DNA from: Acutalibacteraceae bacterium
GTDB lineage: Bacteria; Bacillota; Clostridia; Oscillospirales; Acutalibacteraceae
Direction of reading: 5' to 3'
Assembly (NCBI GenBank): GCA_045661365.1
Contig: JAZRFL010000028.1
Location: forward strand, 1-44,073
Length of the DNA stretch: 44,073 nucleotides
Within the stretch, counting starts at the first letter, position 1. Every line of letters begins with the position of its first letter. The position numbers were made by a program, and so were the translations under genes. Positions 13,487 to 32,183 of the stretch are shown in pieces. A model generated the notes under the pieces. It saw nothing but the letters and a program-made list of their open reading frames with translations. It did no database searches and was not told where the DNA came from.

Positions 13487-13516
13487 GTTTTTTTGAAAAA
13501 AGGAGGGGAAGATGCT

Positions 13517-16043: not shown

Positions 16044-16072
16044 TTGACTTTTCTTTGAATTTTTTGTAATAT
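16044..16072 (+). promoter_or_regulatory. SigA promoter TTGACT-N17-TAATAT for the ABC/Yip1 block
   Basis: TTGACT at 16044-16049, a 17-nt spacer, and TAATAT at 16067-16072. This leaves an untranslated leader of about 160 nt. Confidence 0.6.
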
Positions 16073-16241: not shown

Positions 16242-19202
16242 ATGAAATTCATGAAACGCAGTTTGGCAATGCTGCTCATGCTGGTCCTGGTAGTGACCGT
16301 GTTTGGCAGTAGCTATATGGCTGCGATAGCAACCGAAACGAGTACTGACGTTACGGTAGAGGACGAGGGCCTGCTGAACAAAACAGGTGGTTCTGCCAAA
16401 TATAAGTACTCAGATTATGAGCGGGATCACAGAGGGGTGGCGTACGCTACCGCTGCCGATGAATTTACCATCGCCGCAAATACATATGAACAAGAAAGTG
16501 CCAAGGGGGTAACCGACGGTACTGCCTACGAGCTGGAAGATGCTGAAACCTTCGCGGCTTTGGGCGGTATTACCAACGCTACCGTGGTGACCGGTGAAGA
16601 TGCCGAACTTTCTTGGAAAATCAACGTACCCACCGAAGGCCTGTATGCCATTAACGTATTGTATTACACCGTTAAGCATAAGGACTCCGATGCGGAACGT
16701 GCCTTTTTGATCGACGGCAAAACTCCTTTTACCGAAGCAGGTGCTTTGGTATTTCCCCGTACTTGGAAGGATGCCGGTGATTTTGAAAAGGACATTCACA
16801 ACAACGACATTCGTCCCCAAGCACAAGAAGTAATCGGTTGGTACGACATTGACTGTCGCGATGCCAGCGGTAACTACGGTAAATGCTTGTATTTCTATTT
16901 TACCGCCGGTGAACACACCGTTACCTTGGTTTCGGAACGCGAAGTGATCGCTGTTAACCGTCTGACCTTCTATGCACCCGAACAAGCCATTTCTTACAAA
17001 GATTATATTGCTCAAAACGAAGCTGCTTTGGGTGGTGCTTCTGCTGCGTATCCCGCAGGGGATTCTTTTACTGTGCAAGCAGAAAAACCCTACCAAAAAT
17101 CTTCTACTACCTTATACGCGGAATCGGATCGCTCCAATCCCGCTACTTATCCTTCTTCTCCGGACGAAATTCGCTTAAACAAAATCGACGGCAGTAAGTT
17201 CACCACACCTTACCAATGGATGACTTGGGAAGTCAGCGTGAAAAAGGCCGGGTTATATCGAATTGCCACCCGTTTCCAACAAACTGCCAAAGACGGTTCG
17301 TTCAGTAACCGCACCGTCTATATCAACGGCGAAATTCCTTTTAAAGAAGCCGAAAACATTCGTTTTAATTACGACAGCGACTGGCAAGTGGAATGCTTGA
17401 CCAACGCCAACACCGGCGAAGCGCTGTATTTCTACTTAGATGCAGGTAAAAACTACATCACCATGGAAGTTACCTTGGGTGAGTTCGGTGGTATTTTGGA
17501 CCGTGTCGATACCTTGGTTTACGATTTGAACCAATGCTACCGTGAGATCTTGATGATCACCGGCTCCAGCCCCGACGCCTACCGTGACTACAACTTCCCT
17601 TCTTTGATTCCCGACACTTTGGACAAATTGGAAGAATGCTCGGTAGAGATCAAACGCATTATTTCCGATATCGAGGGCTTGGTGGAAGATGCCGGTTCTT
17701 ATACCAGTAGCTTTAAAACCCTGGTGCAAGATATTGACACCATGACCGACGACCCCAACATCATTGCCAAACGGTTGGAAAACTTTAAATCCAACATGGG
17801 TACCATTTCTACTTGGTTGTTGAACGCAACTGCTCAACCGGTCAGCTTAGACTGGATCATGGTTGCTTCTCGTGACGGTGTGGAATTGCCCGAAGCCGAC
17901 CGTGGCTTCTTTGAAGAACTGTGGCATCAATTCCTGCTGTTCCTTGCTTCCTTCTATATGGATTATGACGAAGTAGGCTTGCGCGAAGACTTTTCTAAGA
18001 GCGAACAAGAAGAAATCACCGTTTGGGTTACCACCAGCTTGGACCAATCCCAAATTATTCGTACCTTGATCGACAACAATCGACAGAACCTAAAATCAAA
18101 GGTCAACCTACAGCTGGTATCGGCGGCCACGGTGCTGCCCTCTATTGCGGCGGGCACAGGGCCTGACGTGGTATTGGGCGTAGCCGCGACCGACCCCATG
18201 AACTATGCTATTCGTGGTGCTGTGGTCGACATGTCTCAGTTCGACGGCTTTGAAGAAGTGCTGGCTCGATACGAGAACGAACAGATCACCCGTCCTTACC
18301 AATATAAAGGCAAGACCTACGGTCTCCCCGAAACCTTCTCATTCCCCATGCTGTTCTATCGCGAAGACATTTTGAACGAGCTGGAAATGGAAATTCCCGA
18401 CACTTGGGAAGAAGTATACGACTGCATTGTAAAACTTAACATGAACTCCATGCAGTTCGGTATCCCCTCTGCTATGACCACCTACGGTACCTTGCTTTAT
18501 CAAAACGGTGGCAGCTTCTATAATGAATTGGGTAACGGCGAAGCAGTTTCGGCTTTGACCCCCGAAAGCGGTGCTGTTAAGATCTTCCGTGAATGGACCG
18601 AATTCTTTACCGCATACAACTGCCTTGTAACCTATGACTTTGCCAACCGTTTCCGTACCGGTGAAACTCCCATTGGTATTGCTGAATACACTCAATACAA
18701 CCAATTGAGCGTATTTGCTCCCGAAATTAAGGGTCTGTGGGGCTTTACCAAGGTACCCGGTCTGGACAAAGACAAAGACGGTAAACCCGAAACCCAATTG
18801 ACCTTGGCATCCGGTACCGCTTCGGTTATTTTGGCTTCCTCCAAGCATCCCGAACTGGCTTGGGACTTCTTGAATTGGTGGACCAGTACCGATATCCAGG
18901 TAGCATATGGCCGTGAAATTGAAAGTATTTTGGGTACGGCTTCTCGTTACAACACCGCCAACAAAGAAGCGGCGGGACAATTGCCCTGGAGTACCAAAGA
19001 CTTTAACGAGATTTCGGCCGCTTGGGACGAAGCAATGGCTCTGCCTGAGTACCCCGGCAGTTACATCCTTGGTCGTTACATCAACTTCGCTTTCTTGGAA
19101 TGTGTTAACAACGAAGGGGATCCCGGTGAAGAACTTCTCGACTATGTAAAAATGATCGACGAAGAGCTGAAGAGAAAACAAGCTGAATTTGCCGGAAAAT
19201 AA
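16242..19202 (+). CDS. Giant (about 986 aa) extracellular solute-binding protein: signal/anchor, two CBM-like modules, helical linker, family-1 SBP domain
   Basis: I used the start at MKFMKRSLAMLLMLVLVV (16242). The ORF-track start at 16077 only adds non-protein-like sequence inside the leader. The duplicated modules contain PTEGLYAINVLYY..FLIDGKTPF and KKAGLYRIATRFQ..VYINGEIPF. The C-terminal roughly 400 aa is SBP-like (YGLPETFSFPMLFYRED). Confidence 0.8.
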   Translation: MKFMKRSLAMLLMLVLVVTVFGSSYMAAIATETSTDVTVEDEGLLNKTGGSAKYKYSDYERDHRGVAYATAADEFTIAANTYEQESAKGVTDGTAYELEDAETFAALGGITNATVVTGEDAELSWKINVPTEGLYAINVLYYTVKHKDSDAERAFLIDGKTPFTEAGALVFPRTWKDAGDFEKDIHNNDIRPQAQEVIGWYDIDCRDASGNYGKCLYFYFTAGEHTVTLVSEREVIAVNRLTFYAPEQAISYKDYIAQNEAALGGASAAYPAGDSFTVQAEKPYQKSSTTLYAESDRSNPATYPSSPDEIRLNKIDGSKFTTPYQWMTWEVSVKKAGLYRIATRFQQTAKDGSFSNRTVYINGEIPFKEAENIRFNYDSDWQVECLTNANTGEALYFYLDAGKNYITMEVTLGEFGGILDRVDTLVYDLNQCYREILMITGSSPDAYRDYNFPSLIPDTLDKLEECSVEIKRIISDIEGLVEDAGSYTSSFKTLVQDIDTMTDDPNIIAKRLENFKSNMGTISTWLLNATAQPVSLDWIMVASRDGVELPEADRGFFEELWHQFLLFLASFYMDYDEVGLREDFSKSEQEEITVWVTTSLDQSQIIRTLIDNNRQNLKSKVNLQLVSAATVLPSIAAGTGPDVVLGVAATDPMNYAIRGAVVDMSQFDGFEEVLARYENEQITRPYQYKGKTYGLPETFSFPMLFYREDILNELEMEIPDTWEEVYDCIVKLNMNSMQFGIPSAMTTYGTLLYQNGGSFYNELGNGEAVSALTPESGAVKIFREWTEFFTAYNCLVTYDFANRFRTGETPIGIAEYTQYNQLSVFAPEIKGLWGFTKVPGLDKDKDGKPETQLTLASGTASVILASSKHPELAWDFLNWWTSTDIQVAYGREIESILGTASRYNTANKEAAGQLPWSTKDFNEISAAWDEAMALPEYPGSYILGRYINFAFLECVNNEGDPGEELLDYVKMIDEELKRKQAEFAGK

Positions 19203-19238
19203 TCAACGCCATTTGTGATATGAATTGAGGGAAAAATT

Positions 19239-20183
19239 ATGAAGCTGTTCAAACGCAATCGTGACGATGAACCGCGTCGCAAACTGACCCGCAAAGAGGT
19301 CGCTACCCGTATTTGGAACGATCGGGTAGGGTATATGATGGTCTTGCCCTTCTTTGCTTTGTTCGTTTGCTTTACGGTAATTCCGGTTGTTATTTCCATA
19401 TACTATAGTTTTACTGACTTTAACATGATCCAAGACCCCAACTTTGTGGGTGTGGAAAACTATACTCGCTTGTTCCTGCGAGATGATATTTTCTTGACTG
19501 CTGTACGTAACACCGTTATTTTGGCAGGTGTTACCGGTCCTGTGGGTTACCTTATGTGCTTCTTCTTTGCATGGGCACTGAACGAATTCACCCCCAAGGT
19601 ACGTGCGGTTTTGACCTTGATGTTCTACGCACCCTCTATTTCGGGTAACGCGTACTTGATCTTTACCCTGTTGTTCTCGGGTGACAGCTACGGCTTTATC
19701 AACGCTTGGTTGATCAAGTTGGGGGCGATCAACTCACCGATTCTGTGGTTCCAAGATGCCAACTACATGATGCCGTTGGTTATCGTTGTATTGCTTTGGA
19801 CCAGTTTGGGTACTTCGTTCCTTAACTTTATAGCAGGTTTCCAAGGGGTTGACCGTTCTTACTACGAAGCGGCGGCGGTTGACGGCGTTCGCAACCGTTG
19901 GCAAGAACTGTGGTTTGTAACCCTGCCTTTGATGAAAGAGTCCCTTATGTTCTCGGCGGTTATGAGTATTACCGGCGCCTTCAGCATTGGACCTACCATC
20001 GACGGTTTGGTTGGCTTCCCCAGTACCGGTTACGCTGTACACACCATTATGCACCACTTGAACGACTACGGTGGACAACGGTTTGAAATGGGTTATGCCT
20101 CTGCCATTGCTACCTTGCTGTTCCTCTTGATGGTTGTTTGTAACAAGGTAATTCAAAAAATGATCAGAAAGGTAGGTAACTAA
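19239..20183 (+). CDS. Sugar ABC transporter permease (CUT1, MalF-like)
   Basis: 6-TM profile with the EAA loop YEAAAVDGVRNRWQELWFVTLPLM. Confidence 0.9.
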   Translation: MKLFKRNRDDEPRRKLTRKEVATRIWNDRVGYMMVLPFFALFVCFTVIPVVISIYYSFTDFNMIQDPNFVGVENYTRLFLRDDIFLTAVRNTVILAGVTGPVGYLMCFFFAWALNEFTPKVRAVLTLMFYAPSISGNAYLIFTLLFSGDSYGFINAWLIKLGAINSPILWFQDANYMMPLVIVVLLWTSLGTSFLNFIAGFQGVDRSYYEAAAVDGVRNRWQELWFVTLPLMKESLMFSAVMSITGAFSIGPTIDGLVGFPSTGYAVHTIMHHLNDYGGQRFEMGYASAIATLLFLLMVVCNKVIQKMIRKVGN

Positions 20184-20185
20184 GC

Positions 20186-21046
20186 ATGGCAAGAGTGAAA
20201 CAATCCCGTGTTAACCGTTCTGCCGGCGGCGATATCTCCCTGTTGGTCATCGTTCTGTTGTTTGCCTTCCTCATGGTAATCCCCATGTACTACGCAATCA
20301 TTCAGTCTTTGAAACCGCTTGACGAATTGTGGATATTCCCTCCTCGTTTTTGGGTTAGCAATCCTACCTTTAAGAACTTCCAAGACTTGTTCCAAAACTT
20401 AAACGATTCTTGGGTTCCTTTTTCCCGTTACATTTTCAATACCCTGTTTGTATCAATCGTCGGTACTGCCGGCCACGTTATTATCGCTTCTATGGCTGCT
20501 TACGCTTTGTCCAAAAAGCGGTTTTACGGCTCCGGATTTGTATTCCGAATCATTGTATTGTCCTTGATGTTTACCACCGCTGTAACCGGTATCCCCACCT
20601 TTATGGTTATGAAAAACCTGGGGTTGATCGATACATACTGGTCCATTATTTTGCCTGCTTTCTCCGGTTCGTTGGGTCTGTACTTGATGAAACAACACAT
20701 GGAAGCCATGGTAAAGGACGCCATCATCGAAGCCGCCAAGATCGACGGTGCCGGCGAAATGCGTATTTTCTGGACCATTGTTATGCCCATGGTAAAACCC
20801 GCTTGGCTGACCTTGATCGTGTTCTGTTTCCAAGGTTTGTGGAACGCCACCGGTGCTACCTACATTTATAGTGAGGAACTCAAGAGTTTGAACTATGCTG
20901 TTTCCCAGATCGTTTCGGCCGGTATTGCCCGTGCCGGTACTGCGGCGGCGTCCATCGTGTTTATGATGATCTTGCCTATCGCGGTATTCGTATTCTCCCA
21001 AAGCAGCATCGTAGAAACCATGTCGTCTGCCGGTATTAAGGAATAG
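20186..21046 (+). CDS. Sugar ABC transporter permease (CUT1, MalG-like)
   Basis: EAA loop IEAAKIDGAGEMRIFWTIVMPMVKP. The start is 2 nt after the upstream stop. Confidence 0.9.
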   Translation: MARVKQSRVNRSAGGDISLLVIVLLFAFLMVIPMYYAIIQSLKPLDELWIFPPRFWVSNPTFKNFQDLFQNLNDSWVPFSRYIFNTLFVSIVGTAGHVIIASMAAYALSKKRFYGSGFVFRIIVLSLMFTTAVTGIPTFMVMKNLGLIDTYWSIILPAFSGSLGLYLMKQHMEAMVKDAIIEAAKIDGAGEMRIFWTIVMPMVKPAWLTLIVFCFQGLWNATGATYIYSEELKSLNYAVSQIVSAGIARAGTAAASIVFMMILPIAVFVFSQSSIVETMSSAGIKE

Positions 21047-21080
21047 TACGACAGAAAATCTGATAAAGGGAGAAAAGTTT

Positions 21081-23531
21081 ATGCGAAGAATAAAACGTCA
21101 TATCAACATTTTAGTGATAGCCGCACTTTTGCTGACTGTTACGCTAATGCCCGCCTCCGCTGCCGGTGTTAGTAAAAATATTTCTTCGTCGGTACCGTAC
21201 GATACTTATATCTACGACTATGCCGGCAACCCGGTTATTACCCCGCACGCCTATATTCCCGACAGTGTTATTGACTTGGGTGAAATGGGCTTGGGCGGTA
21301 TGACCAGTCCCTCTGACTTGGAAGTGGACAAAAATGACAATCTTTACTTGGTCGACACCGGTTACGGTGTCAGCCAAGACGATTTGTCCGAGTATCTTGC
21401 CTCTCTGCCGGGCGCTCCCGAAGAGATCCCCGGTGAAGAAGACGAGATGGTGGATGAAGAGCTCGACGTAGAAACCGATGCAGAAATTGACGCCGAGACC
21501 GAGGAAGAAACCGAACCGGTGGTGGAAGAAGTTCCCGATTCCACTCCCCAAGAGGATATTCCCGCTGAACCCAAAGAACCCGCCACCCCCGAACAAATCG
21601 AGTATTACAACAAACTGAGCGAATTAGCCTTGGAAGCCGACGTTGCCTTTACCGGTCGTGTGATCGTGCTTAACCCCGACAAGACCGAAAAGTTCCATGT
21701 TTCTGTGTTCTACAACACCGAAACCAAGAGTTTTGACGGGTTTGACAATCCGCAAGGTATTACCGTAACCTCCAAGTACATTTACGTTGCCGATACCGGC
21801 CACCAACGAATCGTTCGCTTTAACTTAGACGGTAGCTTCTCTCGTGCATTTGGTGACCCCAACATTGCTTATTCCGACGAAGCAACTCCTTATACCCCCA
21901 CCAAGGTGGCAGTTGACCGCAACGAAAATATGTATGTTATCTCCCAAGGTGAGATCATGGGTATTATCTTGCTGGACAAAGAAGGGGAGTTTGCCGGTTA
22001 CGTTGGTGCTCAACAAGTTAGCTACAGTGTCGTGGACTATATTTGGAAAAACATTTTGTCCCAAGAAGCCCAAGACCGTATGGAAGCTTTCGTACCTACC
22101 GAATACAACAACGTAAAGATCGACGAACAAGACTTCTTGTACGCCACCACCGAAATTGAAGGGGAAGACATTGACGGCGCGGTTATGTCCAAGACTGCCG
22201 ACACCAAATCTTCACCCATCAAACGGTTGAACCCCACCGGTAATGACGTTTTGGTCCGTAAGGGTTACTTCTCTACCGTGGGCGACGTTTCTTACAAGAC
22301 CGACCCGGTTCGCGGTCCTGACATCTCGATCATTGTCGACGTTGCCTTGGGACCCAACGGTCGTTACACCTTGTTGGATGAAAACTACAACCGTATGTTT
22401 ACCTACTCTGCCGACGGTGAATTGATCTATGCCTTTAGCGGTGAAGGGTACCAAGTGGGTAACTCCCGTACCCCTGTGGCTATTGCATATGACAGCAACT
22501 ACGATTTGTATTTGCTGGACTATGACACCGGTTACATTACGGTGTTTAGCCGTACCAAATACGGTAAGCTGATCGACGAAGCTTACAGTTATTACAGAGA
22601 CTACGACTTTGAAAACAGCGTAAAGAAATGGGACGAAGTTCTCAACGAAAATGCCAACTTCGACATTGCATATGACGGTAAAGGTAACGCCTATATGCAA
22701 GACGAAAACTACGATGAGGCTATGAAGATGTTCCGTTACTCCAACAACAAGCAACGGTACTCCGACGCCTTGGCACAAAGCCGTGCCACTTCGATCGAAG
22801 ATCATTTGATAGTTATCGTTTTGGTTGTAGTTGTGATCTTGTACCTGTTGGTCAAGCTGTTTGGCTGGATCGGCAAGCGGAACAAATCTCCCAAATATGC
22901 CGACAAGCACGGTACTTACCTCAACCAAGTGCTGTATGCGTTTTACATTATGCTCCATCCCTTCGACGGTTTCTGGGATGTGAAACATGAAAAACGCGGT
23001 AGCGTAAAAGCGGCAACCACCATTGCCTTGTTCTTGATTTTTGCCAATTTGGTTTCTGCTTTCTTTACCAACTACCTGTTTAACGATGCCTACGGTACCG
23101 AGATTTCGATCATGAGTGAATTTTTGATCGTTCTTATGCCTTTGGGACTGTGGACCTTGTGCAACTGGTGTGTTACCACCCTGGCAGACGGTGAAGGCAG
23201 CATTAAAGACGTTTATGTCTTTACCTGCTACGCTCTGCTTCCCATGGCCATGTTTACCATTGTAAACACTGTGCTTTCTCATTTCATTGTGTTAGACGAA
23301 GGTATGTATATCACCTTCTTTAGTTCCTTGGGTGTTATTTGGAGTGGCTTCCTGCTGTTCTCCGGTAACACACAAACCCATCGATATACTGTGTCAAAGA
23401 GTGTACTTTCTATTTTGATGGCCGCCATCGGTATGTGTATTGTGGTATTTATTGCATTGGTTATCTTTACCACCTACCAACAAATTTACGGCTTTATCGA
23501 TAACATTGTAAAAGAATTGACTTATCGATGA
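21081..23531 (+). CDS. Fusion membrane protein: signal peptide, NHL-type beta-propeller, acidic linker, TPR-like segment, C-terminal 5-TM Yip1-like domain
   Basis: NHL-like blades: LYLVDTGY, IYVADTGHQRIVRFNLDGSF, MYVISQGEIMGIILLDKEGEF and LYLLDYDTGYITVF. The D/E-rich linker spans about 21420-21560. The TPR-like segment is NAYMQDENYDEAMKMFRYS. Five hydrophobic helices follow HPFDGFWDVKHEKRGS. Confidence 0.7.
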   Translation: MRRIKRHINILVIAALLLTVTLMPASAAGVSKNISSSVPYDTYIYDYAGNPVITPHAYIPDSVIDLGEMGLGGMTSPSDLEVDKNDNLYLVDTGYGVSQDDLSEYLASLPGAPEEIPGEEDEMVDEELDVETDAEIDAETEEETEPVVEEVPDSTPQEDIPAEPKEPATPEQIEYYNKLSELALEADVAFTGRVIVLNPDKTEKFHVSVFYNTETKSFDGFDNPQGITVTSKYIYVADTGHQRIVRFNLDGSFSRAFGDPNIAYSDEATPYTPTKVAVDRNENMYVISQGEIMGIILLDKEGEFAGYVGAQQVSYSVVDYIWKNILSQEAQDRMEAFVPTEYNNVKIDEQDFLYATTEIEGEDIDGAVMSKTADTKSSPIKRLNPTGNDVLVRKGYFSTVGDVSYKTDPVRGPDISIIVDVALGPNGRYTLLDENYNRMFTYSADGELIYAFSGEGYQVGNSRTPVAIAYDSNYDLYLLDYDTGYITVFSRTKYGKLIDEAYSYYRDYDFENSVKKWDEVLNENANFDIAYDGKGNAYMQDENYDEAMKMFRYSNNKQRYSDALAQSRATSIEDHLIVIVLVVVVILYLLVKLFGWIGKRNKSPKYADKHGTYLNQVLYAFYIMLHPFDGFWDVKHEKRGSVKAATTIALFLIFANLVSAFFTNYLFNDAYGTEISIMSEFLIVLMPLGLWTLCNWCVTTLADGEGSIKDVYVFTCYALLPMAMFTIVNTVLSHFIVLDEGMYITFFSSLGVIWSGFLLFSGNTQTHRYTVSKSVLSILMAAIGMCIVVFIALVIFTTYQQIYGFIDNIVKELTYR

Positions 23532-23631
23532 TCATCGGTCGGGACGGCAGGTAGCCGCCTGCCACCCGCCTACTCGAAATTGAAAACACGCACAATCTTA
23601 GCCGTAAATACGGCGGAACGGATGGGAGTTT

Positions 23632-26316
23632 ATGAAGATATTATATAAATCAATACTCGTTCTTCTTTGTGTCGGCTTACTGATGTCGATCATCGGTTGC
23701 AGTGAAAACGAAGACGGAACGGTAGACGGCGTCAAACAATGGACGCTGGCAGAATTAAACACCGGCATTCAATATAAAGCGTTGAGTGTCGATGCCGAAA
23801 CCGGTATGGACGTGGTTGCTTCCAACGATGCTTATGATATGTTGTTTGATCAAGTCAATGCAACCATTGGCATTCGTGACAAATCTACCGGCTACGTGTG
23901 GAAAACCAATTCCACCCCCGATGACTTTACCGGCAATATGTACAGCTTGAGTGAACAAGAACGTGAATATTGCTCGCAATTACAATTGACCTACTATGAC
24001 CACCGTCATCAACCGGTTAACTACAACAGCTTTGAGCATGCGGTTATGCAAAACCGTGACGACGACAAGCGGATGTATTTTTACGGCTTGAACAACGGTA
24101 TGCGTATCGTTTACGTCATTGGTCAAAGTGAAGAAGCATTCTACGTACCCACCTATATTTTCAAAGAAGATTTCGACGCTTTGGTAAATGCTATTCCCCA
24201 AGAAGCAATTGACAAGTTTATCGAAGAAGGTTCCGACTACGGTGCCAGCACCTTGGACGTTTACTATGATGAATTTGACTATGACTTTGAAATTCAAAAT
24301 ACCGACCAAGCGATCATCAATTCTTTGACCAATTCTTGCGAAAACTTTGGTCCCGGCAAGATCTTGTACAAATTCAGTGCCGCTTCTAACTTTGTTACCA
24401 GCGAAATTTATCGCAAACTGTTGCGTGATTTGAAAGATGAAAAGGGCAACCCCATGATCACCAACGAGTATATCCAAAAGATCTACGAAAACGTTGGCTA
24501 TGAATACGAGGAACCCGATCATCCCAAATTCACCGTTGCTATGGACTTTGTACTGACTGCTGACGGTTTGAAGGTTGACGTAGATACCGAAAAAGTAATT
24601 TACGAAGATTCCTTTAAACTCAACAATCTGCAAATTTTGCCCTGCTTTGGTACGGTGCTTGACAACAAAGAATCCAAAATTCTGTTGCCCGACGGTAGCG
24701 GTACCTTGGTAGACGTGCTGAATCCCTCTTCTGACAAAGCTTTGTCCTTGCCCTTCTACGGCAACGATTACAGCTATGAAGTTACCGACTACGCCTTGGG
24801 TATGCAACAAGCCAGTCTGCCGGTATACGGCTTGACCAGAGGGGACAACGCTTTTGTTGCTTACGTTTCTGACGGGGAAGCGATCGGCTCGGTCAAATGC
24901 CAACCCGTTACCGAGACCTATGCTCACTCATTTGTAGGTTGCTACTTTACTGTGCAACCCTTTGAAGAACGCCGCTCTAACGGTGCTTCGGCTCAAACCA
25001 CCATGAAAATGTTTGCCTCCGATCCTTATCGCGGCAAGATCACGCTGGAATATATGTTCCTGGGCGATCAAAACGGCGGCATTGATTACGTGGAAATGGC
25101 ACAAGCAGTTCGCAACAAATTGTTTAAGAGCAAAGCCAAGGTTGCCGACGACACCACTCGGTTCTATATGGAAACCTACGGTGCTGTTTTGCGTAAAGAA
25201 AACTTCTTAGGCTATGCTTATAACGACACCACTGCATTGACCACCTTTGATCAAGCGAAATCCATGTATACCACGTTGAACGAAAACGGCATTACTAACA
25301 TTGCCGTGCGTTACAACAACTGGTACGGTGACGCCTTTGTTAACCAAATTTCCGATATTGGTAAGGTGGAAAGTGAAGTAGGCGGTAGCGACGGCATGAA
25401 AGAGTTCATGAGTTTTGTTGCCGGCAAAAAAGGCCTTGTTTACCCCAACATTGAACTGATTATGGAAGAATATTCCAACAGTTTGATCGACGCTACTTGG
25501 CACTCCAAATACATGGGCGGTACCATGGTTGCTTACTCTGACATGAACCTCTATGCCGAAGGCGTAACCTCTGATTTCGAACGTTTGGTGGTTAAGAGTG
25601 ACGTTATGTTAGAAGACCTGCCCGACATTATGGAGCGCGTGGGTAAATTGCAAACCACCGGTCTTTCGGTTTCAACCTTGGGCGATCAATTGTTCTCTGA
25701 CTATACCAGCGACGAAGTACGTTACCGCGATACGGTCAAAGACGATTATGTGACCGCTATTAAGCAACTGAAAGAAACCAACAAACAAAAATTGCTGTTT
25801 GACGGCGGTAATGCTTATGTGTTGCCTTATGCCGATGATTTGATGAATGTGGCGATCAGCAGCAGCAACCACTATTTGTCGGAAACAGACGTTCCTTTCA
25901 TGCAAATTGTGTTGCACGGGTACATTCCCTATACCGCATCTTCCATGAACCTGTCCGACAACTATGATGTGCAATTGCTCAAGAGTGTAGAATACGGTGC
26001 TAACCTTGCCTACACCTTGAATTACGCAAATGCCGAAATGGTGAAAAACACCAACTATTCCGAATTGTACTCTACCAACTTCGATCACTGGAAATCCCAG
26101 GCGGTTGCAGACTACAAAAAGGTAGCGGCCGTGCTTGACGGTTGTCAATCGGCCACCATTCAAGATCATACCCAATTAGCAGACGGTGTGTACCAAACCA
26201 CCTATGACAATGGTGTTGCGGTCTTGGTCAACTATAACAACCAAGCCTATACCGATGCCGCCACCGGTACTACGGTAGAAGCTATGAACTTTGCACGTGT
26301 GGGAAAGGAGGGCTAA
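23632..26316 (+). CDS. 894-aa lipoprotein of unknown function (possibly DUF5696-like, possible glycan-active fold)
   Basis: Lipobox MSIIG-C. I recognised no catalytic signature. The DUF5696 guess rests only on my recollection that Yip1 and DUF5696 genes neighbour ABC genes in other Firmicutes. Confidence 0.6.
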   Translation: MKILYKSILVLLCVGLLMSIIGCSENEDGTVDGVKQWTLAELNTGIQYKALSVDAETGMDVVASNDAYDMLFDQVNATIGIRDKSTGYVWKTNSTPDDFTGNMYSLSEQEREYCSQLQLTYYDHRHQPVNYNSFEHAVMQNRDDDKRMYFYGLNNGMRIVYVIGQSEEAFYVPTYIFKEDFDALVNAIPQEAIDKFIEEGSDYGASTLDVYYDEFDYDFEIQNTDQAIINSLTNSCENFGPGKILYKFSAASNFVTSEIYRKLLRDLKDEKGNPMITNEYIQKIYENVGYEYEEPDHPKFTVAMDFVLTADGLKVDVDTEKVIYEDSFKLNNLQILPCFGTVLDNKESKILLPDGSGTLVDVLNPSSDKALSLPFYGNDYSYEVTDYALGMQQASLPVYGLTRGDNAFVAYVSDGEAIGSVKCQPVTETYAHSFVGCYFTVQPFEERRSNGASAQTTMKMFASDPYRGKITLEYMFLGDQNGGIDYVEMAQAVRNKLFKSKAKVADDTTRFYMETYGAVLRKENFLGYAYNDTTALTTFDQAKSMYTTLNENGITNIAVRYNNWYGDAFVNQISDIGKVESEVGGSDGMKEFMSFVAGKKGLVYPNIELIMEEYSNSLIDATWHSKYMGGTMVAYSDMNLYAEGVTSDFERLVVKSDVMLEDLPDIMERVGKLQTTGLSVSTLGDQLFSDYTSDEVRYRDTVKDDYVTAIKQLKETNKQKLLFDGGNAYVLPYADDLMNVAISSSNHYLSETDVPFMQIVLHGYIPYTASSMNLSDNYDVQLLKSVEYGANLAYTLNYANAEMVKNTNYSELYSTNFDHWKSQAVADYKKVAAVLDGCQSATIQDHTQLADGVYQTTYDNGVAVLVNYNNQAYTDAATGTTVEAMNFARVGKEG

Positions 26317-26319
26317 TCC

Positions 26320-27381
26320 ATGGCAAATGAACCTTATGAAAATGATCAAGTGGTAAACGACGTGGAACAACCGGTTTCGCAACCGGAAGCCCAACCCCAA
26401 CTGCAAGAGGTATATACCACACAAGAGGCATTAAGTCATCCTCAAACCAAGCAATTGAAAAAGTTGCGGTATTTTGACTTGTCCACCCGCAGAAACTTCA
26501 TGGGTTATTGGTTTATTTTACCCTTTGCCATTGGTTTTCTGCTCATCTACTTACCTGCATTGATCGAAGCCTTCCGCTTCAGTACCCACGACATTATTAC
26601 TTCTTCCGGTACCATGTACACCCTGGAAACCAACAAAGAAGGTTTGTGGTACTACTACAACACCGCTTTGGTCAAAGACCCGGACTTTATCCGCGGTATT
26701 TGGGAATCCATGGCAAGCATGTTGCTCAACGTGGTGATCATCATCATTTATTCCTTGCTGATGGCGACCATTTTGAACCGAAACATTGCCGGTAAGAGCT
26801 TTTACCGTGCTATGCTGTTCCTGCCTGTTATTGTAGCGACCGGTATTATTGCCACCGCTGAAAACTTCGAGGTTACCACCAACATGGTACAAGATATTGA
26901 AGCGGCTTCGGCAGGTGCTTCGGGCAGTATCTTTAACGAATTCGGTATTGAACAGCTTATGATGTCGCTGAATATTAACGATACCTTGTCAGGAATCGTT
27001 GTAGCGGCAATTGGTAACTTGTACGGTATCATTACCTGCTCGGGCGTACAGCTCATCATCTTCTTGGCAGGTCTGCAATCCATTTCTCCCTCCATTTACG
27101 AGTCGGCTACCGTAGAAGGTGCCACTTGGTGGGAAAGCTTTTGGAAAATCACCATCCCCATGATCAGCCCCTTGATTTTGGTAAATACGGTGTATACCAT
27201 CGTTGACTCCTTTACCCAATACGGCAATCAGGTTATGGATGAGATTTACAAATTGATCAGCGAAAATGCATCTTACTCCGACGCGGCTGCCCGTTCCTTT
27301 GTGTACTTGGCTGTGGTTGGTGTACTGATTGCCATCGTTGTGCCCGTTGTCAACAAGTTTGTTTTCTATGAAAACAAGTAG
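26320..27381 (+). CDS. Sugar ABC transporter permease (CUT1, MalF-like) with a roughly 60-aa acidic/Q-rich N-terminal extension
   Basis: EAA loop YESATVEGATWWESFWKITIPMISP. The start is 3 nt after the upstream stop, and a GGAAAGGAGGG RBS lies inside the upstream gene end. Confidence 0.9.
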   Translation: MANEPYENDQVVNDVEQPVSQPEAQPQLQEVYTTQEALSHPQTKQLKKLRYFDLSTRRNFMGYWFILPFAIGFLLIYLPALIEAFRFSTHDIITSSGTMYTLETNKEGLWYYYNTALVKDPDFIRGIWESMASMLLNVVIIIIYSLLMATILNRNIAGKSFYRAMLFLPVIVATGIIATAENFEVTTNMVQDIEAASAGASGSIFNEFGIEQLMMSLNINDTLSGIVVAAIGNLYGIITCSGVQLIIFLAGLQSISPSIYESATVEGATWWESFWKITIPMISPLILVNTVYTIVDSFTQYGNQVMDEIYKLISENASYSDAAARSFVYLAVVGVLIAIVVPVVNKFVFYENK

Positions 27382-27408
27382 TCCACTCAATGATTTGGAG
27401 GTGTTAAA

Positions 27409-28392
27409 ATGGAAGCTACTGAAAAAATGCCGGTAAAGAAACAATCTCGGTTGGCTCGTAAAATGCGCAGTAAAATGGCAAAATCGGGCTTGGTACAAAT
27501 GTCCAGCAATTTCCTTTGCCACATTATCTTGATCGGTATTGTATTTATGATACTGTTTCCGTTTATTGAAAAACTTTGCACCATGTTTTTGAGCTATGAG
27601 GACCTTGCTGACACCACGGTACAATACGTTCCCAAAAACTGGTCGTTAGACACGTTGCGCGAAACCATGGACGCCATGAAATATTGGACTTCCTTGACCC
27701 ACACCGTTTTGCTGTGCGTACTTAGCTCGGTTCTGCAAACTTTGAGCTGTACTTTGGTCGCTTACGGTTTTGCCCGTTACAAATTCCCTGGCCGTGGCAT
27801 TTTGTTTGCCTGCGTGCTGTTGGTATTGTTGATTCCGCCCCAGGTTATCATGACTTCGTTGTTTATGAACTTCAGCTTCTTTAACTTCCTTGGTCTGCCA
27901 ACCTTAATTGCCGGCGCACCCATCAACATTACCAAAGGTGTATGGCCCTTTATCCTTATGTCGGTTACGGCCATTGCCTTTAAAAACTCGCTGTACATTT
28001 ACATGCTCCGTCAGTTCTTCCGTGGTTTGCCCACCGAAATTGAAGAAGCCGGCATGATCGACGGTTCGGGTCACTTTGGTGTGTTCTTCCGTCTTATGCT
28101 GCCCAATGCGGTTCCTATGATGGTTACGATCGTTCTGTTTGCCTTCTCTTGGCAATGGACCGACAACTACTACTCCGCATTGTTCCTGGACGGCGGCGAA
28201 TTTTTACCCTTGTCGTTGCAATTAAATGCCATTAAGGCTTATTTGCCCAACGACACTCGTATTACCCCCAACTACCGCGAAGCTTTGGTTGGTACCGGCA
28301 TTTTGCTGGTAATCGCTCCCTTGTTCCTGCTCTACTTGGTAGGTCAACGTTTCTTTGTACAAGGGATTTCACAAAGTGGTATTGTGGGATAA
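27409..28392 (+). CDS. Sugar ABC transporter permease (CUT1, MalG-like)
   Basis: EAA loop EIEEAGMIDGSGHFGVFFRLMLPNAVP. A GGAGG RBS precedes the start. Confidence 0.9.
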   Translation: MEATEKMPVKKQSRLARKMRSKMAKSGLVQMSSNFLCHIILIGIVFMILFPFIEKLCTMFLSYEDLADTTVQYVPKNWSLDTLRETMDAMKYWTSLTHTVLLCVLSSVLQTLSCTLVAYGFARYKFPGRGILFACVLLVLLIPPQVIMTSLFMNFSFFNFLGLPTLIAGAPINITKGVWPFILMSVTAIAFKNSLYIYMLRQFFRGLPTEIEEAGMIDGSGHFGVFFRLMLPNAVPMMVTIVLFAFSWQWTDNYYSALFLDGGEFLPLSLQLNAIKAYLPNDTRITPNYREALVGTGILLVIAPLFLLYLVGQRFFVQGISQSGIVG

Positions 28393-28400
28393 AAAACCAC

Positions 28401-28429
28401 TTGTTTTTTGGGCAAGGTTGTGTTATAAT
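28401..28429 (+). promoter_or_regulatory. SigA promoter TTGTTT-N17-TGtTATAAT dedicated to the second SBP gene
   Basis: TATAAT at 28424-28429 with a TG extension at 28421-28422. The -10 element lies inside the inverted repeat GGGCAAG/CTTGCCC (28410-28416/28434-28440). Confidence 0.6.
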
Positions 28430-28507
28430 GATCTTGCCCCGAAATACTCTGTTTAGAAATATGGGTATACATATTTTTAATAAAACAAATTTAAGGAGAT
28501 GTCACAC

Positions 28508-30307
28508 ATGAAAACAAACCTGATGAGATTGATTTCCCTGGTATTGGTTCTCATGGTTGCTCTGGTTGCCTTTGCAGCTTGCGGCGCTGAAGAAGAAGCT
28601 CCCAAAACTTCTGCTCCCGCCTCTACTGCTCCCAGTACCCCTGCACCCGAAACTGAACCTCCCGTAGAGGAAATCGTTGACGCCGTAGAAGGCGACCCCT
28701 TCACCCTTGGCGCCGAAACCACCGACGTCTTGTTGATTATGAACAACGAGACCAATGAACGTTCTGTTCAAGTTTTGGAAAAATCCACCATGGACAAAGT
28801 TCGCGCTTTTGTATTGCCCGTAGAAGGCTTTACCATGGAAATCCTTGACAAAGACGGCAAAAAGGTAGAAGATACCGCTGTTGTTGCCGAAGGCATGACC
28901 ATTCAATTCGTTGCCGCTGACGGCACCGTAAGCGATGTTAAATTGCCCATCGTGATCAAAACTGCCGAGGAATTGGAAGGCGTTGTATCCGATAATCTCC
29001 CCCCTGTTGTTACTCCTCCCGCTGACGGCGGAAATAACGGTGGCGGAAACAATGGCGGCGGCACCGTTACCCCCCCTCCCAGTGGTGGCACCAACCACAA
29101 CATCAGCATCAACTTGGCCTCTATCTGGGTTGCCAACTACTCCGCTGCTGATGCCAACGGTAAAGCTTGGGCCAATGCCTTGAATGCTATGAAAAACAAG
29201 GGCATCAAAACCAACATTAGCGCTTTGGATGCCAACTCCGCTACCGACACCATCGTAAAAGAAGTTATGGCCGGTAAATCCAGCGCTGACGTTTATGACA
29301 TTTCTCAAGTTATGTGCCGCAACGTTGCCAAGAAAAAGGCCGCTGCTAATATGTATGCTTCTACCACTTTGAACAAATCTTTGTTCCAATGTGCCGCTAC
29401 CGAATCGGTTACCTTTAAAGGCAAAGCTTACGGTGTAACCTGGGCTTCCAAATCGGTTAACCCCATGGGCGTTATCTACAACAAAGACTTGATCAAAAAA
29501 TACGCTGCCAACTATGACATCGTAAAATTGTACAACGAAAAGAAATGGGATTTCGACAACTTCCAAGCTATCGCCAAAGCTTGCACCGTTGACACCGACG
29601 GTAACGGCAAATCCGATATCTACGGTTTCACCTCTAACACCAACGTTATCGGTATGGCTTTGACCTCCAATGCCGGTGGTACCGCTTTGAAAGTAAACGA
29701 AAAAGTTGAAGCCACCATGTGCAACGAAGCCGGTATCAAAGCTCTTGAATGGTGCAAAGAAATGTTCAAGACCGACAAATCCTGGCTGTACAAAGCTGAC
29801 ATCAACCAATGCGTAAGTGAATTTGCAGGCGGCAAAGCTGCTATGTTCGTTTCTTACTTGCAATTCTATCCCCAAATCGCTGCTCAAGCCAACTTCAACA
29901 TCGGTTTCGTTCTCATGCCCAAGGGCCCCGCTCAAAGCAACTACAGAAACGGTGTTTATGATGGTGCCTACTACGTAGTTCCCACCACCAAAGTTGCTCG
30001 CTTGAACGACGTAGGTACTTGGTTGAACGAATTGGCTACCGGTACCAGCTCTGCTTTCTTGAACAACAAAGTAAAAGACTTGGCTAAGAACGGTTTCGAC
30101 GCCAAATCTCAAGAAATCTACAAATGGGTAGTTAACAACATGACTCCCGAATACTCTTCCGGTGTATTCTCTTCCAGCATTTCTTCTGAAGTTGACAACT
30201 CTGTTACTTCTGCTGCCAAACAACCTGCCAAGGTTATGGCTTCTATCAAAACCAAGGCTCAAAAAGAATGCGACGACTACTATGCTGAAATCTACGCTTT
30301 GAGCTAA
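28508..30307 (+). CDS. Extracellular solute-binding lipoprotein (family 1) with an N-terminal low-complexity linker, extra small domain and G/N/P linker
   Basis: I used the ATG at 28508, 9 nt after AAGGAG. The ORF-track start at 28499 abuts the RBS. Lipobox VAFAA-C. The SBP-like core runs from about aa 200 to the end. Confidence 0.85.
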   Translation: MKTNLMRLISLVLVLMVALVAFAACGAEEEAPKTSAPASTAPSTPAPETEPPVEEIVDAVEGDPFTLGAETTDVLLIMNNETNERSVQVLEKSTMDKVRAFVLPVEGFTMEILDKDGKKVEDTAVVAEGMTIQFVAADGTVSDVKLPIVIKTAEELEGVVSDNLPPVVTPPADGGNNGGGNNGGGTVTPPPSGGTNHNISINLASIWVANYSAADANGKAWANALNAMKNKGIKTNISALDANSATDTIVKEVMAGKSSADVYDISQVMCRNVAKKKAAANMYASTTLNKSLFQCAATESVTFKGKAYGVTWASKSVNPMGVIYNKDLIKKYAANYDIVKLYNEKKWDFDNFQAIAKACTVDTDGNGKSDIYGFTSNTNVIGMALTSNAGGTALKVNEKVEATMCNEAGIKALEWCKEMFKTDKSWLYKADINQCVSEFAGGKAAMFVSYLQFYPQIAAQANFNIGFVLMPKGPAQSNYRNGVYDGAYYVVPTTKVARLNDVGTWLNELATGTSSAFLNNKVKDLAKNGFDAKSQEIYKWVVNNMTPEYSSGVFSSSISSEVDNSVTSAAKQPAKVMASIKTKAQKECDDYYAEIYALS

Positions 30308-30331
30308 TAGTCAAGTATAATTTGTAATTCG

Positions 30332-30367
30332 TCTTGTGCCGAGGTTTCCTCGGCACAAGATTGTTTT
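30332..30367 (+). terminator. Rho-independent terminator
   Basis: 13-bp perfect stem TCTTGTGCCGAGG/CCTCGGCACAAGA (30332-30344/30348-30360) followed by TTGTTTT. Confidence 0.85.
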
Positions 30368-30401: not shown

Positions 30402-31994
30402 ATGAAACGCATTATTAGTGCTTTGTTAGTTGTCATGCTTCTTTGCTCCATGTTTGTTGTAAGTGTTGCCGCTGAAAATGCTGACAGCACCATTATGATT
30501 CCTGCCAGCAAATTGGAAAAGAAGTTTGTGGTTGACGGCAACCTGGATATTTGGTATCTCAATGCCGATGACGAAACTCCCAAAAATGACGGCAACTACT
30601 ATCAATATGTGGCTTTGAGCCCCATTGAAAAATCCGATGGTGTTTCCTATTACGCCGACCCTGTTACCTTTGCTCAAGGTTGGACCGCATGGGATGATGA
30701 CTATGTATATATTTACGTAAAAGTATGGGATGATCATCTGGTTAAGTTTGACCCCAGCGGCGCTCATGCCGGTATGGACTCTTCGGCTGCTGACTGTGTT
30801 GGTGTCTTCTTTGACCCCGACCCCAACAGCCAAACCCATGAATTTGTTTATGATACCGACAAACATAACGGTAACATTATCGACGAAATCCAAAAAGAAG
30901 CTCCCCTGGACAACTTCTTTGCTCAAACCAGCGACCCCGAACAAGGTGATACCCAGTTCCGTTGGCGTCCTTTGGAAGACCAAATCGACGACTATCACAA
31001 CGTAGTTAAACCCGGTTACAACGGTGTAACTTTTGCTGATTACATCACCAACACCGACAACCTGGTTACTTTTACTTTTGAAAACGATCCTATCATCGTA
31101 GAAGAAACCGGTACCGAAGTTACCTCCGGTTTTGGTTTTGAAGTTCGTTTGCCCCGCAACAACGACAAATCCAATTCTTATCGTTTCCATTTGTATGCTG
31201 CCAACTCTTCCGACGAAAACTGGAGCCGCTATACCTTGGCTACCGGTAACGCTTGGTGGATGCAATACGATACCGCATGGGGCGTATATTATTATGATGA
31301 TGCTCCCTTCTTCAACCAAAGTGAAGAACAATTGGCTACCAAAGGCGTAATGTATACCGATTCTGAAATCAACTTGCGCGGTCCTGCCGGTGCTGTGGTT
31401 GAAAAAATCAAGGCATTGGGCAACGTAACTGCTGCCGACAAAGACAAGGTTTTGGCTTTGAAAGCTGAATACGATGCTTTGACCGTGATCGAAAAAGGTT
31501 ACGTAGAATACAAAGATTGCCTTGAAACCTTGGAAGCTGCTGTAGAAGCCGTTGGCGGAGATGTAACTCCTCCCGACAACACCGACCAAGAAGCCGCCGA
31601 TGCTGTTATGGCTCAAATCGATGCTTTGAACGTACAATCCTTGGACGATGAAGCCGCTGTTGTAGCCGCTCGCACCGCTTATGATGCTTTGACCGATGCT
31701 CAAAAAGCTTTGGTTACCAATTTGGCTAAATTGGAAGCCGCCGAAGCCGCTATTGCTGCTTTGAAAGCTGACGTTCCCGGCCCTGCCGTAAAATACGGTG
31801 ACGTAAACGGCGACGGAAAAGACGATGCTGCCGATGCTTTGGACGTTCTGAAATCGGTTGTTGGTAAAGTAAGCTTTAATGCAGATCAATTTAAAGCTGC
31901 CGATACCGACGGCGACGGCAAAGCCGATGCGGCTGACGCTTTGAACATCCTGAAAAAGGTTGTAGGCAAATTGGATAAATATCCCGTAGAATAA
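30402..31994 (+). CDS. Secreted CBM9-like (DOMON-type) domain protein with one helical repeat and C-terminal dockerin (paralog 1)
   Basis: Signal peptide present. CBM9-like signature: KKFVVDGNLDIWY...TAWDDDYVYIYVKVWDD...FFDPDPNSQTH. Repeat: AARTAYDALTDAQKALVTNLAKLEAAE. Dockerin: YGDVNGDGKDDAADALDVLKSVVG...DTDGDGKADAADALNILKKVVG. Confidence 0.85.
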   Translation: MKRIISALLVVMLLCSMFVVSVAAENADSTIMIPASKLEKKFVVDGNLDIWYLNADDETPKNDGNYYQYVALSPIEKSDGVSYYADPVTFAQGWTAWDDDYVYIYVKVWDDHLVKFDPSGAHAGMDSSAADCVGVFFDPDPNSQTHEFVYDTDKHNGNIIDEIQKEAPLDNFFAQTSDPEQGDTQFRWRPLEDQIDDYHNVVKPGYNGVTFADYITNTDNLVTFTFENDPIIVEETGTEVTSGFGFEVRLPRNNDKSNSYRFHLYAANSSDENWSRYTLATGNAWWMQYDTAWGVYYYDDAPFFNQSEEQLATKGVMYTDSEINLRGPAGAVVEKIKALGNVTAADKDKVLALKAEYDALTVIEKGYVEYKDCLETLEAAVEAVGGDVTPPDNTDQEAADAVMAQIDALNVQSLDDEAAVVAARTAYDALTDAQKALVTNLAKLEAAEAAIAALKADVPGPAVKYGDVNGDGKDDAADALDVLKSVVGKVSFNADQFKAADTDGDGKADAADALNILKKVVGKLDKYPVE

Positions 31995-32072
31995 TTTAAT
32001 TCCGCAAAAACCGCTTTCCGTTTGGTAAGCGGCTTTTGTGGATTTAGGTTGGCAGACCTTATATCTGCCAAT

Positions 32073-32117
32073 CTCTCCGTGCACCGAGGTTACCGCCTCG
32101 GTGTACGGAGAGGTTTT
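32073..32117 (+). terminator. Rho-independent terminator (17-bp stem)
   Basis: CTCTCCGTGCACCGAGG / CCTCGGTGTACGGAGAG with one G-U pair and loop TTACCG, followed by GTTTT. Confidence 0.85.
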
Positions 32118-32183
32118 AAACAAAAGCACATAAGGTCTATCGGTAATGGTAACCGTTTGTGCTTTTAGTAGGAGGAATTCAAA

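Follow-up and report, generated by a model that had tools for sequence, protein, structure and literature searches.

A widespread Bacillota cassette combining two CUT1-type permease pairs, a giant substrate-binding protein, a Yip1-propeller protein and a predicted glycosidase-like lipoprotein

Introduction

Sugar importers of the CUT1 group (TC 3.A.1.1) that depend on an orphan ATPase of the MsmX/MsmK type have a simple gene complement: a substrate-binding protein (SBP) of the SBP_bac_1 type, a MalF/UgpA-like and a MalG/UgpE-like permease that each carry an EAA loop, and no ATPase gene at the locus. Such shared ATPases are well established for the CUT1 importers of the Firmicutes. The polysaccharide utilization loci of Gram-positive bacteria (gpPULs) are defined by a degrading enzyme, a transporter and a transcriptional regulator. 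Here we describe a locus that recalls both, in a 44,073-nt stretch of DNA from an Acutalibacteraceae bacterium (GCA_045661365.1, contig JAZRFL010000028.1, positions 1–44,073 of the forward strand). This whole stretch, hereafter the window, carries at 16242–30307 a block of eight co-directional genes on the + strand, which encode, in order, the substrate-binding protein SBP1, the permeases P1a and P1b, a membrane protein (X), a lipoprotein (Y), the permeases P2a and P2b, and a second substrate-binding protein, SBP2 (Table 1).

The core of this block, which consists of the two permease pairs, one SBP, X and Y, is a conserved cassette and almost certainly a genuine functional unit. On balance, we favor the view that the block encodes a self-contained extracytoplasmic system for the capture, cleavage and import of a glycan. 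The cassette resembles the CUT1 importers in all of the points mentioned above, but it has two permease pairs in one conserved, putative operon with usually a single SBP; this SBP is a protein of ~1,000 aa with two CBM35-like carbohydrate-binding modules (CBMs) and no lipid anchor; and X and Y are obligatory additions between the two pairs. The likeness to the gpPULs and, by concept, to the Sus-like systems of the Bacteroidota is that the genes for surface glycan binding, for a (predicted) surface enzyme and for a dedicated importer stand side by side. However, the cassette lacks a regulator, has no member of a recognized carbohydrate-active enzyme (CAZyme) family, is found in a core housekeeping context and includes a Yip1-propeller membrane protein that has no counterpart in the described PULs. 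Although the parts are known (CUT1 importer, GH129-like fold, CBM35, NHL and Yip1), their conserved combination is undescribed. In the literature that we searched, DUF5696 (PF18952), the Pfam family of Y, is not mentioned in any paper, and Yip1 combined with ABC, SBP, GH (glycoside hydrolase) or NHL terms retrieved no description of the cassette. Public annotation calls X a "YIP1 family protein" and Y a "DUF5696 domain-containing protein".

A conserved seven-gene cassette

Open reading frame (ORF) listing and translation confirm the eight genes of the initial annotation, in the order that it gave. The spacers between them are, in order, 36, 2, 34, 100, 3, 27 and 106 nt, so the close spacing originally reported stands, although its range is 2–106 and not 2–115 nt. 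A sigma-70-like promoter motif lies upstream of the first gene, and a terminator-like hairpin directly follows the SBP2 stop codon, ahead of the first of four downstream dockerin genes. Taken together, the tight spacing and these two signals fit one transcription unit from which the dockerin genes are excluded, and the eight-gene block is best read as a single predicted operon. In many related loci X and Y, as well as Y and P2a, abut or overlap by a few bases, which suggests translational coupling.

In a census of 90 related loci, made by our own ORF and BLAST comparison, 77 carry the full set of seven in colinear order (giant SBP, permease, permease, X, Y, permease, permease); in the remaining 13 the order is kept but at least one gene is missing, in most cases where a contig ends. 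The initial annotation had staked its proposal on a gene order that would recur in other genomes, and this recurrence, in independent loci and well beyond chance, bears out its view that the block is a real unit. The loci range from the Oscillospiraceae to Paenibacillus, Alkalihalobacillus and Mahella. Nine look-ups seeded with Y homologues of 63, 46, 27, 24, 28, 25, 27, 25 and 27% identity found the identical neighborhood each time, and in all 11 Y-seeded loci, down to 23% identity, X and Y are accompanied by paired CUT1 permeases. The same neighborhood came from X-seeded look-ups in Paenibacillus and Alkalihalobacillus trypoxylicola, both cultured Bacilli. Hence the co-occurrence of X and Y with paired CUT1 permeases that the initial annotation had proposed to look for was found in every Y-seeded locus and in every X-seeded locus of sufficient length. 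A scan of one genome per species with an X alignment as query gave X relatives in at least 578 species genomes; the carriers are mostly uncultured Clostridia of gut and rumen, together with Paenibacillus and its relatives, and include soil species. The order, the spread and the family size imply that the cassette is ancient and very widespread in the Bacillota, and vertical inheritance is the best reading of the seven-gene core.

Could the block nevertheless have arisen by accident, from two sugar importers (each lacking an ATPase) and two further genes that are all unrelated to one another? The permease pairs are not closely related, and in the window each adjoins an SBP gene of its own, as such an origin would predict. 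On the other hand, the same seven genes follow one another in 77 of the 90 loci, across classes of Bacillota, and neither X nor Y was found outside the cassette context in any locus examined. The conserved order leads us to reject chance, the probability of which we regard as negligible.

Table 1. Genes of the block and putative transcription signals that flank it
Feature	Coordinates	Strand	Description	Evidence
Promoter-like site	16044..16072	+	sigma-70-like, TTGACT-17-TAATAT	consensus scan, pattern match alone
SBP1	16242..19202	+	giant secreted substrate-binding protein, 986 aa	Pfam, profile searches
P1a	19239..20183	+	MalF/UgpA-like permease, EAA loop	BPD_transp_1, NCBIfam
P1b	20186..21046	+	MalG/UgpE-like permease, EAA loop	BPD_transp_1, NCBIfam
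X	21081..23531	+	816 aa	Pfam Yip1 and NHL, AlphaFold2 model, hydropathy
Y	23632..26316	+	lipoprotein, 894 aa, lipobox IIGC	Pfam DUF5696, AlphaFold2, Foldseek
P2a	26320..27381	+	MalF/UgpA-like permease, EAA loop, 50-residue cytoplasmic N-terminal extension	BPD_transp_1, NCBIfam
P2b	27409..28392	+	MalG/UgpE-like permease, EAA loop	BPD_transp_1, NCBIfam
SBP2	28499..30307	+	lipoprotein, 602 aa, lipobox FAAC, ~200-residue extension, divergent sugar-SBP domain	weak SBP similarity
Terminator-like hairpin	30331..30361	+	14-bp stem, 8 G-C pairs	pattern match alone

Two permease pairs without an ATPase

All four permeases match the Pfam family BPD_transp_1, and the NCBIfam models place P1a and P2a nearest to UgpA/MalF, and P1b and P2b nearest to UgpE/MalG. 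The CUT1-type EAA loops that had been recognized by eye in all four are conserved at 97–100% in their E, G and P positions (78–88 homologues per permease) and are thus both real and under selection; all four permeases have kept these loops, which serve to couple a permease to its ATPase. Each pair is a canonical heterodimeric type I importer core, so that the two permease subunits of a CUT1 importer are present twice. The initial annotation took this for a duplicated importer. A recent duplication is ruled out by the low resemblance between the pairs (P1a and P2a are 31% identical over only 62 residues, P1b and P2b 23% over 179), which are instead ancient and distinct pairs of the MalF/MalG type. 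The P1 pair is the best-conserved part of the cassette, the median identity of P1a across loci being 57%.

As first noted, there is no nucleotide-binding subunit in the block, nor is there one elsewhere in the window. The other loci have no transporter ATPase within 10 kb, since their sole ABC_tran matches carry ABC_tran_Xtn and are therefore of the ABC-F type. This absence across all of the loci examined fits the use of a shared MsmX/MsmK-type ATPase.

The giant SBP1 and the accessory SBP2

The initial annotation gave both SBPs extra N-terminal modules, and these are indeed present, with a length of about 600 residues in SBP1 and 200 in SBP2. In SBP1 the SBP_bac_1 match covers residues 616–886 and that of SBP_bac_8 extends to 905, with no other region matched by Pfam, which leaves the ~600 N-terminal residues as an addition. 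The match to PF01547 (E=7e-20) identifies the protein as a sugar-type extracytoplasmic SBP, as in the CUT1 importers. It starts with a Sec signal peptide that has no lipobox; then come two beta-sandwich modules of the CBM35/CBM6 kind, a linker that is helical and resembles a coiled coil, and an oligosaccharide-binding domain of the CUT1 type (~600–986), which is nearest to the oligosaccharide binders Lin1841 (E=1.6e-12) and Lmo0181. The extension is homologous across all loci, and the giant SBPs in the Y- and X-seeded neighborhoods are 907–1094 aa long. A profile built from 30 extension sequences matches the CBM35 of the cycloisomaltooligosaccharide glucanotransferase CITase (5x7g, E=8.4e-10) and, more weakly, other CBM35/CBM6 modules; among these 30 family members Pfam finds CBM_35 in 12 and Golvesin_C in 21. 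The repeat pattern of the extension indicates two CBM35-like modules, and the helical region behind them has matches to designed coiled coils. A plain AxA-type Sec signal peptide without a lipobox is found in 71 of 78 homologues; a monoderm cell has to tether a protein of this kind in some other way.

SBP2 has no Pfam match; it is weakly similar to sugar SBPs from residue ~228 onwards (Lin1841, E=0.007; UspC; AbnE), and a homologue in locus L002, 57% identical, does carry SBP_bac_1. With an iterated hidden Markov model (HMM), a second SBP of ordinary size was detected within 10 kb in only ~18 of the 90 loci, and Pfam SBP_bac_1 is found in just 5 of 39 co-directional downstream genes. The symmetrical arrangement, with an SBP at either end, that gave the block its initial description is thus a lineage-specific elaboration, and SBP2 is a lineage-specific accessory outside the universal core. 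Four loci (L018, L030, L040 and L048) have an ORF of ~627–631 aa after P2b that has no Pfam match and is not recognized by the SBP HMM; its sequences are 83–85% identical among L030, L040 and L048.

Protein Y resembles GH129 and GH101 glycosidases

The initial annotation considered Y to be an orphan lipoprotein and the block to be devoid of identifiable glycoside hydrolases. That Y is a lipoprotein is borne out by its lipobox, but it is no orphan: DUF5696 matches over nearly the whole profile (positions 6–612 of 612), and its score of 471 bits (E=7.7e-141) is far above the cut-off of 25.6. Its AlphaFold2 model, derived from an alignment of 47 sequences (pLDDT 88.2, pTM 0.86), shows three domains: a beta-sandwich at the N-terminus, into which a helical segment is inserted, a (beta/alpha)8 barrel at ~510–835 and a second beta-sandwich at the C-terminus. 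Foldseek comparison of this model with the PDB gives as best matches two GH129-like enzymes, the 3,6-anhydro-D-galactosidase DagB (ZgGH129, ZGAL_3152; 5opq, E=1.7e-30, TM-score on the target 0.66) and the alpha-N-acetylgalactosaminidase NagBb (5wzn, E=3.6e-24, TM-score 0.71), followed by the GH101 endo-alpha-N-acetylgalactosaminidases EngBF and SpGH101 (E ~1e-17) and, more weakly (E ~3e-14 at best), by the GH36-like FpGalNase and several GH31 enzymes (GH31 ~1e-12). The relationship is also visible at the sequence level: a profile of the Y family matches ZgGH129 (E=1.3e-7) and NagBb (2e-6), and a profile of the barrel alone matches NagBb (6e-5). The family profile is required for this, as a single-sequence phmmer search of the PDB with Y found no match. 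Contrary to the initial statement, the block thus does contain a glycosidase-like protein, and Y is modeled to be a distant relative of the GH129/GH101-type glycosidases, with a barrel that is GH31-like as well and an activity that is predicted.

Such a relationship is certainly distant. DagB has the same three-domain layout as Y, and its essential residues are Asp202 in the N-terminal domain, Asp486 (the equivalent of Asp435 in NagBb) and Glu517 (PMC5698469). The modeled Y has the order of domains that characterizes the GH129 fold, but it differs from the GH129 enzymes in its low identity (~10%), in the large helical insertion of its N-terminal domain and in being always part of an ABC-transporter cassette. 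The HMMER alignment of the Y profiles with NagBb and DagB is confined to barrel strands 1–3 and the first part of the N-terminal domain, and the metal-site residues of NagBb (HLD...THD) are not conserved in the aligned stretch of Y. Every one of the Y homologues starts with a lipobox or a Sec signal peptide, which indicates that the protein works outside the membrane. Its long variants (1,300–1,980 aa), when scanned for extra domains, had only DUF5696. An exhaustive profile search returned 7,616 representatives of 50%-identity clusters at E<=1e-3, 5,843 at E<=1e-10 and 4,233 at E<=1e-30; if Y is an active enzyme, these several thousand clusters would make up a new glycoside hydrolase family or enlarge an existing one.

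The candidate catalytic residues bear on whether Y is an enzyme at all. In 125 homologues D354, within an invariant PDGSG motif, is conserved at 98%, D379 at 92%, D/E608 at 85%, D690 at 87–90%, D735 at 76% and N727 at 94%; R699 is invariant, and so is E787 in the barrel alignment. Perhaps Y is an inert glycan-binding protein that has kept a glycosidase fold and acts as the substrate receptor of the second permease pair. This would explain why most loci (~72 of 90) have a single classical SBP, and it agrees with the position of Y always directly upstream of P2a, often overlapping it, with candidate catalytic acids that are not universally conserved, and with a median identity of 25%, which makes Y the fastest-evolving component of the core. 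However, the conservation of D354, D379, E608, D690 and E787 at 85–99%, with R699 and N727 equally well preserved, is typical of an active site, and to our knowledge there is no precedent for a protein with a GH fold that docks on a type I ABC importer. We therefore think a receptor role improbable and retain Y as a candidate for the processing step of a glycan import system.

Protein X unites a propeller, TPR helices and a Yip1 domain

The families that the initial annotation proposed to search for were all found: Yip1 and NHL in X, DUF5696 in Y, and TPR families (PF13432, PF07719 and PF13414) in several X homologues. Yip1 (PF04893) scores 58 bits in X against a gathering cut-off of 28.6 (E=1.4e-15, profile positions 2–172 of 173) and NHL (PF01436) 34.8 bits against 20 (E=1.4e-8). 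According to the AlphaFold2 model (pLDDT 87) and hydropathy, a signal peptide is followed by an extracellular six-bladed NHL propeller (42–491), four TPR-like helices in two pairs (493–553), a transmembrane helix (~573–595), a cytoplasmic linker that is rich in Lys and Arg and contains an invariant HPFDGFWD-KHEKRG motif, and a C-terminal Yip1 domain, whose five transmembrane helices lie within 642–~795 and whose conserved DGEG loop faces the cytoplasm. The initial description of X as an exported beta-propeller and TPR segment fused to a Yip1-like domain with five transmembrane helices was therefore accurate. An acidic, disordered propeller-loop insert at residues 119–159 (21435–21557), part of it tandemly repeated with a 24-nt period (21465–21510), is restricted to the closest relatives and missing from most homologues. 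In the Hungateiclostridiaceae-type loci L013, L014 and L072, two adjacent genes take the place of X, one for the NHL/TPR ectodomain and its transmembrane helix (502 aa) and one for a Yip1 protein of 207 aa; the two halves of X are evidently separable modules. When the Yip1 domain was used by itself to look for different architectures, it gave five matches, all of them fragments from the same cassette context. The X homologue of locus L094 (775 aa) has a Rubredoxin-type match in place of NHL.

What X does is less easily read from its structure. The Foldseek matches are all to NHL propellers of a generic kind (those of TRIM71, Thin and the PknD sensor, for example, with TM-scores on the target of 0.7–0.8), and a single-sequence phmmer search of the PDB likewise gives generic NHL matches only; nothing therefore points to catalysis. 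One possibility is that X is mainly a transmembrane sensor or gate, in which a ligand of the ectodomain acts through Yip1 and the cytoplasmic motifs to switch the permeases or the shared ATPase, or to signal to gene expression. The sensor propeller of PknD, which like that of X lies outside a monoderm membrane on a transmembrane protein, is the nearest bacterial structural analogue of the ectodomain, and the hybrid two-component sensor BT4663 is also among its matches. The most strongly conserved residues of X are, moreover, cytoplasmic or in the membrane (HPFDGFWD-KHEKRG, DGEG, E740 and E812), and conventional regulators are missing from the loci. Unlike PknD, however, X has no kinase and no other recognizable output domain (DNA-binding or cyclase, for example), its propeller being fused to TPR and Yip1 instead. 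In addition, complex assembly is the role found for those Yip1 proteins that have been studied, and the tight gene order that X shares with Y and the permeases, often with overlaps, points to a structural partner in stoichiometric amounts. All things considered, a sensor function seems unlikely.

The precedent invoked by the initial annotation for an importer-associated role is YknW of Bacillus subtilis, and it is a real one: this Yip1 protein, encoded together with an ABC transporter, modulates the assembly of that transporter (PMC4887032). Its relevance to an importer is another matter, because YknYZ is an exporter, of the MacB type and equipped with a membrane-fusion protein, and the analogy with X is accordingly loose. 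YknW has no ectodomain, whereas X has one of 540 residues, with propeller and TPR, and belongs to a type I importer; the block has no genes of the FtsX/MacB or HlyD type. The cassette nevertheless bears on the function of bacterial Yip1 domains.

Genomic context and possible substrates

The genes around the cassette are heterogeneous and of the housekeeping type. Among ~240 ORFs flanking the related loci we found an iscS-type aminotransferase, mnmA, alaS, rplM-rpsI, aconitase, carbamoyl-phosphate synthase and secA, and no glycoside hydrolase family is enriched. Regulators are only occasional: ROK proteins account for 9 of 193 ORFs, and LacI proteins are few. Apart from the housekeeping genes, ROK and PfkB were the only groups that stood out as enriched. 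Such flanks give the impression of a self-contained unit that belongs to the core genome. Many genomes of the Oscillospiraceae type have the cassette directly downstream of an iscS-type cysteine desulfurase gene and mnmA and upstream of alaS or rplM-rpsI; the iscS-mnmA position is stable in L017, L020, L025, L036, L046, L058, L024, L042, L073, L003 and L095. In A. trypoxylicola the block is between spoVID/ysxE-like genes and valS-folC. As reported at the outset, the block itself contains no transcriptional regulator; a helix-turn-helix protein (HTH_3; 13493–14137) is encoded upstream, separated from it by M18 peptidase and ZapA genes.

Considering this context, the same components might serve a housekeeping role, in which the cell trims or recycles a glycopolymer of its own envelope or capsule (a secondary cell-wall polymer, the glycosyl decoration of teichoic acid or an exopolysaccharide). 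The conserved core neighborhoods in the Oscillospiraceae-type genomes and in Alkalihalobacillus are what one would expect from such a role, as are the lack of a dedicated regulator and of accompanying catabolic glycoside hydrolases and, in the window, the location of the block after zapA and cell-wall genes. However, nutrient capture is the usual business of CBM35-type modules and oligosaccharide SBPs, genes for catabolic enzymes border some of the loci (GH65/GH31, LacI with GH94, GH16 with fucosidase, ROK/PfkB kinases), and the host taxa have very different envelopes. We would put the recycling of the cell's own polymers at a low probability.

The hints to a foreign substrate are diverse. Those that favor an alpha-glucan are the CITase-type CBM35 match and the GH65 and Lmo2446-like GH31 genes that flank L092. 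A beta-1,2-glucan is suggested by the GH94 gene that adjoins the cassette in L006, and lies ~7 kb downstream of it in L095, as well as by the Lin1841 match of SBP1, while L004 is flanked by GH16 and fucosidase genes. The fold family of Y is one of retaining alpha-glycosidases, and the modeled fold would accordingly favor an alpha-linked glycan. Whatever its identity, the target would be a glycan that a large fraction of the Bacillota of the animal gut are permanently equipped to take up.

A model for glycan capture, cleavage and import

The initial proposal of a surface machine that captures, processes and imports a complex glycan is partly supported, as both the CBM35-like modules of SBP1 and the glycosidase fold of Y fit it. 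In the model that we prefer, the CBMs of SBP1, and possibly the X propeller, would catch the polymer at the cell surface, where Y would cleave it. The SBP domain of SBP1, assisted by SBP2 where it is present, would then bind the products and deliver them to the two translocators, which would probably import products of different sizes or types and would be powered by a shared MsmX/MsmK-type ATPase encoded elsewhere. X could be the membrane scaffold or hub of this system: its TPR and propeller may hold the anchor-less SBP1, and those versions of Y without a lipobox, beside the permeases, and its Yip1 domain may contact the transporter within the membrane. This specific role for X is a tentative suggestion that is more apt to be wrong than right. 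An architecture of two translocators, an unanchored CBM-bearing SBP and a Yip1-propeller protein raises questions about how type I importers are organized at the monoderm surface.

Several observations weigh against the capture, cleavage and import model. The catalytic residues of Y are not mappable onto GH129, given the limited extent of the HMMER alignment; D690 is replaced in the Mahella and Alkalihalobacillus sequences; and the best-conserved motif of Y, PDGSG, sits in the N-terminal domain. The purely generic NHL matches of the X propeller give no evidence for carbohydrate or protein binding. One would not ordinarily expect a locus for nutrient foraging to lie among housekeeping genes and to lack a regulator, and the substrate hints conflict with each other. 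The single SBP that accompanies two permease pairs in ~72 of the 90 loci is not explained by a simple picture of two importers. Finally, the activities, ligands and expression assigned to the components of the cassette are all predictions from sequence.

A still more radical version of the model would turn X, Y and the second permease pair into an ABC importer of a new kind, with a physical link between the hydrolysis of the glycan and the translocation of its products. X would then dock Y and the anchor-less SBP1 directly on a MalF/MalG-type channel, which would receive the cleavage products with no binding protein devoted to them. The Yip1 domains of bacteria would in that case generally serve ABC transporters as subunits for assembly or coupling, and DUF5696 would be the founder of a further glycoside hydrolase family, one that counts thousands of members among the Bacillota of gut and rumen. 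We consider this a long shot.

Dockerin genes and other features of the window

Four paralogous dockerin proteins are encoded downstream of the block, at 30402–38968. The initial annotation saw in them four dockerin-tethered CBM9-like proteins. The dockerins are confirmed, with Dockerin_1 in all four, whereas CBM9_1 is below threshold in three (20–22 bits, cut-off 23.4) and absent from the second. Their CBM9-like N-terminal domain is followed by ~1–6 helical repeats of 198 nt (66 aa). The dockerin-coding ends of two of the genes (32184–35153 and 35260–37254) are 98% identical in DNA sequence, which suggests recent gene conversion. We considered these genes as part of the system and rejected them, as they lie behind the strong terminator-like hairpin and follow the block only in close relatives.

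Two more dockerin proteins are encoded outside the block, at 4277–5578 and 9777–11801, one of which is an S8 subtilase with a C-terminal dockerin; apparently the organism displays non-CAZyme proteins on a cohesin scaffold. No cohesin gene is present in the window.

Two long antisense ORFs, of 586 aa at 28502–30262 and 609 aa at 30426–32255 (both on the - strand), mirror SBP2 and the first dockerin gene. We take them to be artefacts of composition; similar antisense ORFs confounded simple ORF calling in many of the related loci. Near the start of the window, the gene for an FtsW/RodA-family protein with an N-terminal forkhead-associated (FHA) domain (161–1819) overlaps the start of a penicillin-binding protein transpeptidase gene (1803–3143). 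Near its other end, a gene for an Rce1-like CAAX protease (40203–41216) overlaps by ~100 nt with a tRNA-adenosine-deaminase-like gene (41120–41671), and this same pair is also found after the cassette in locus L001.

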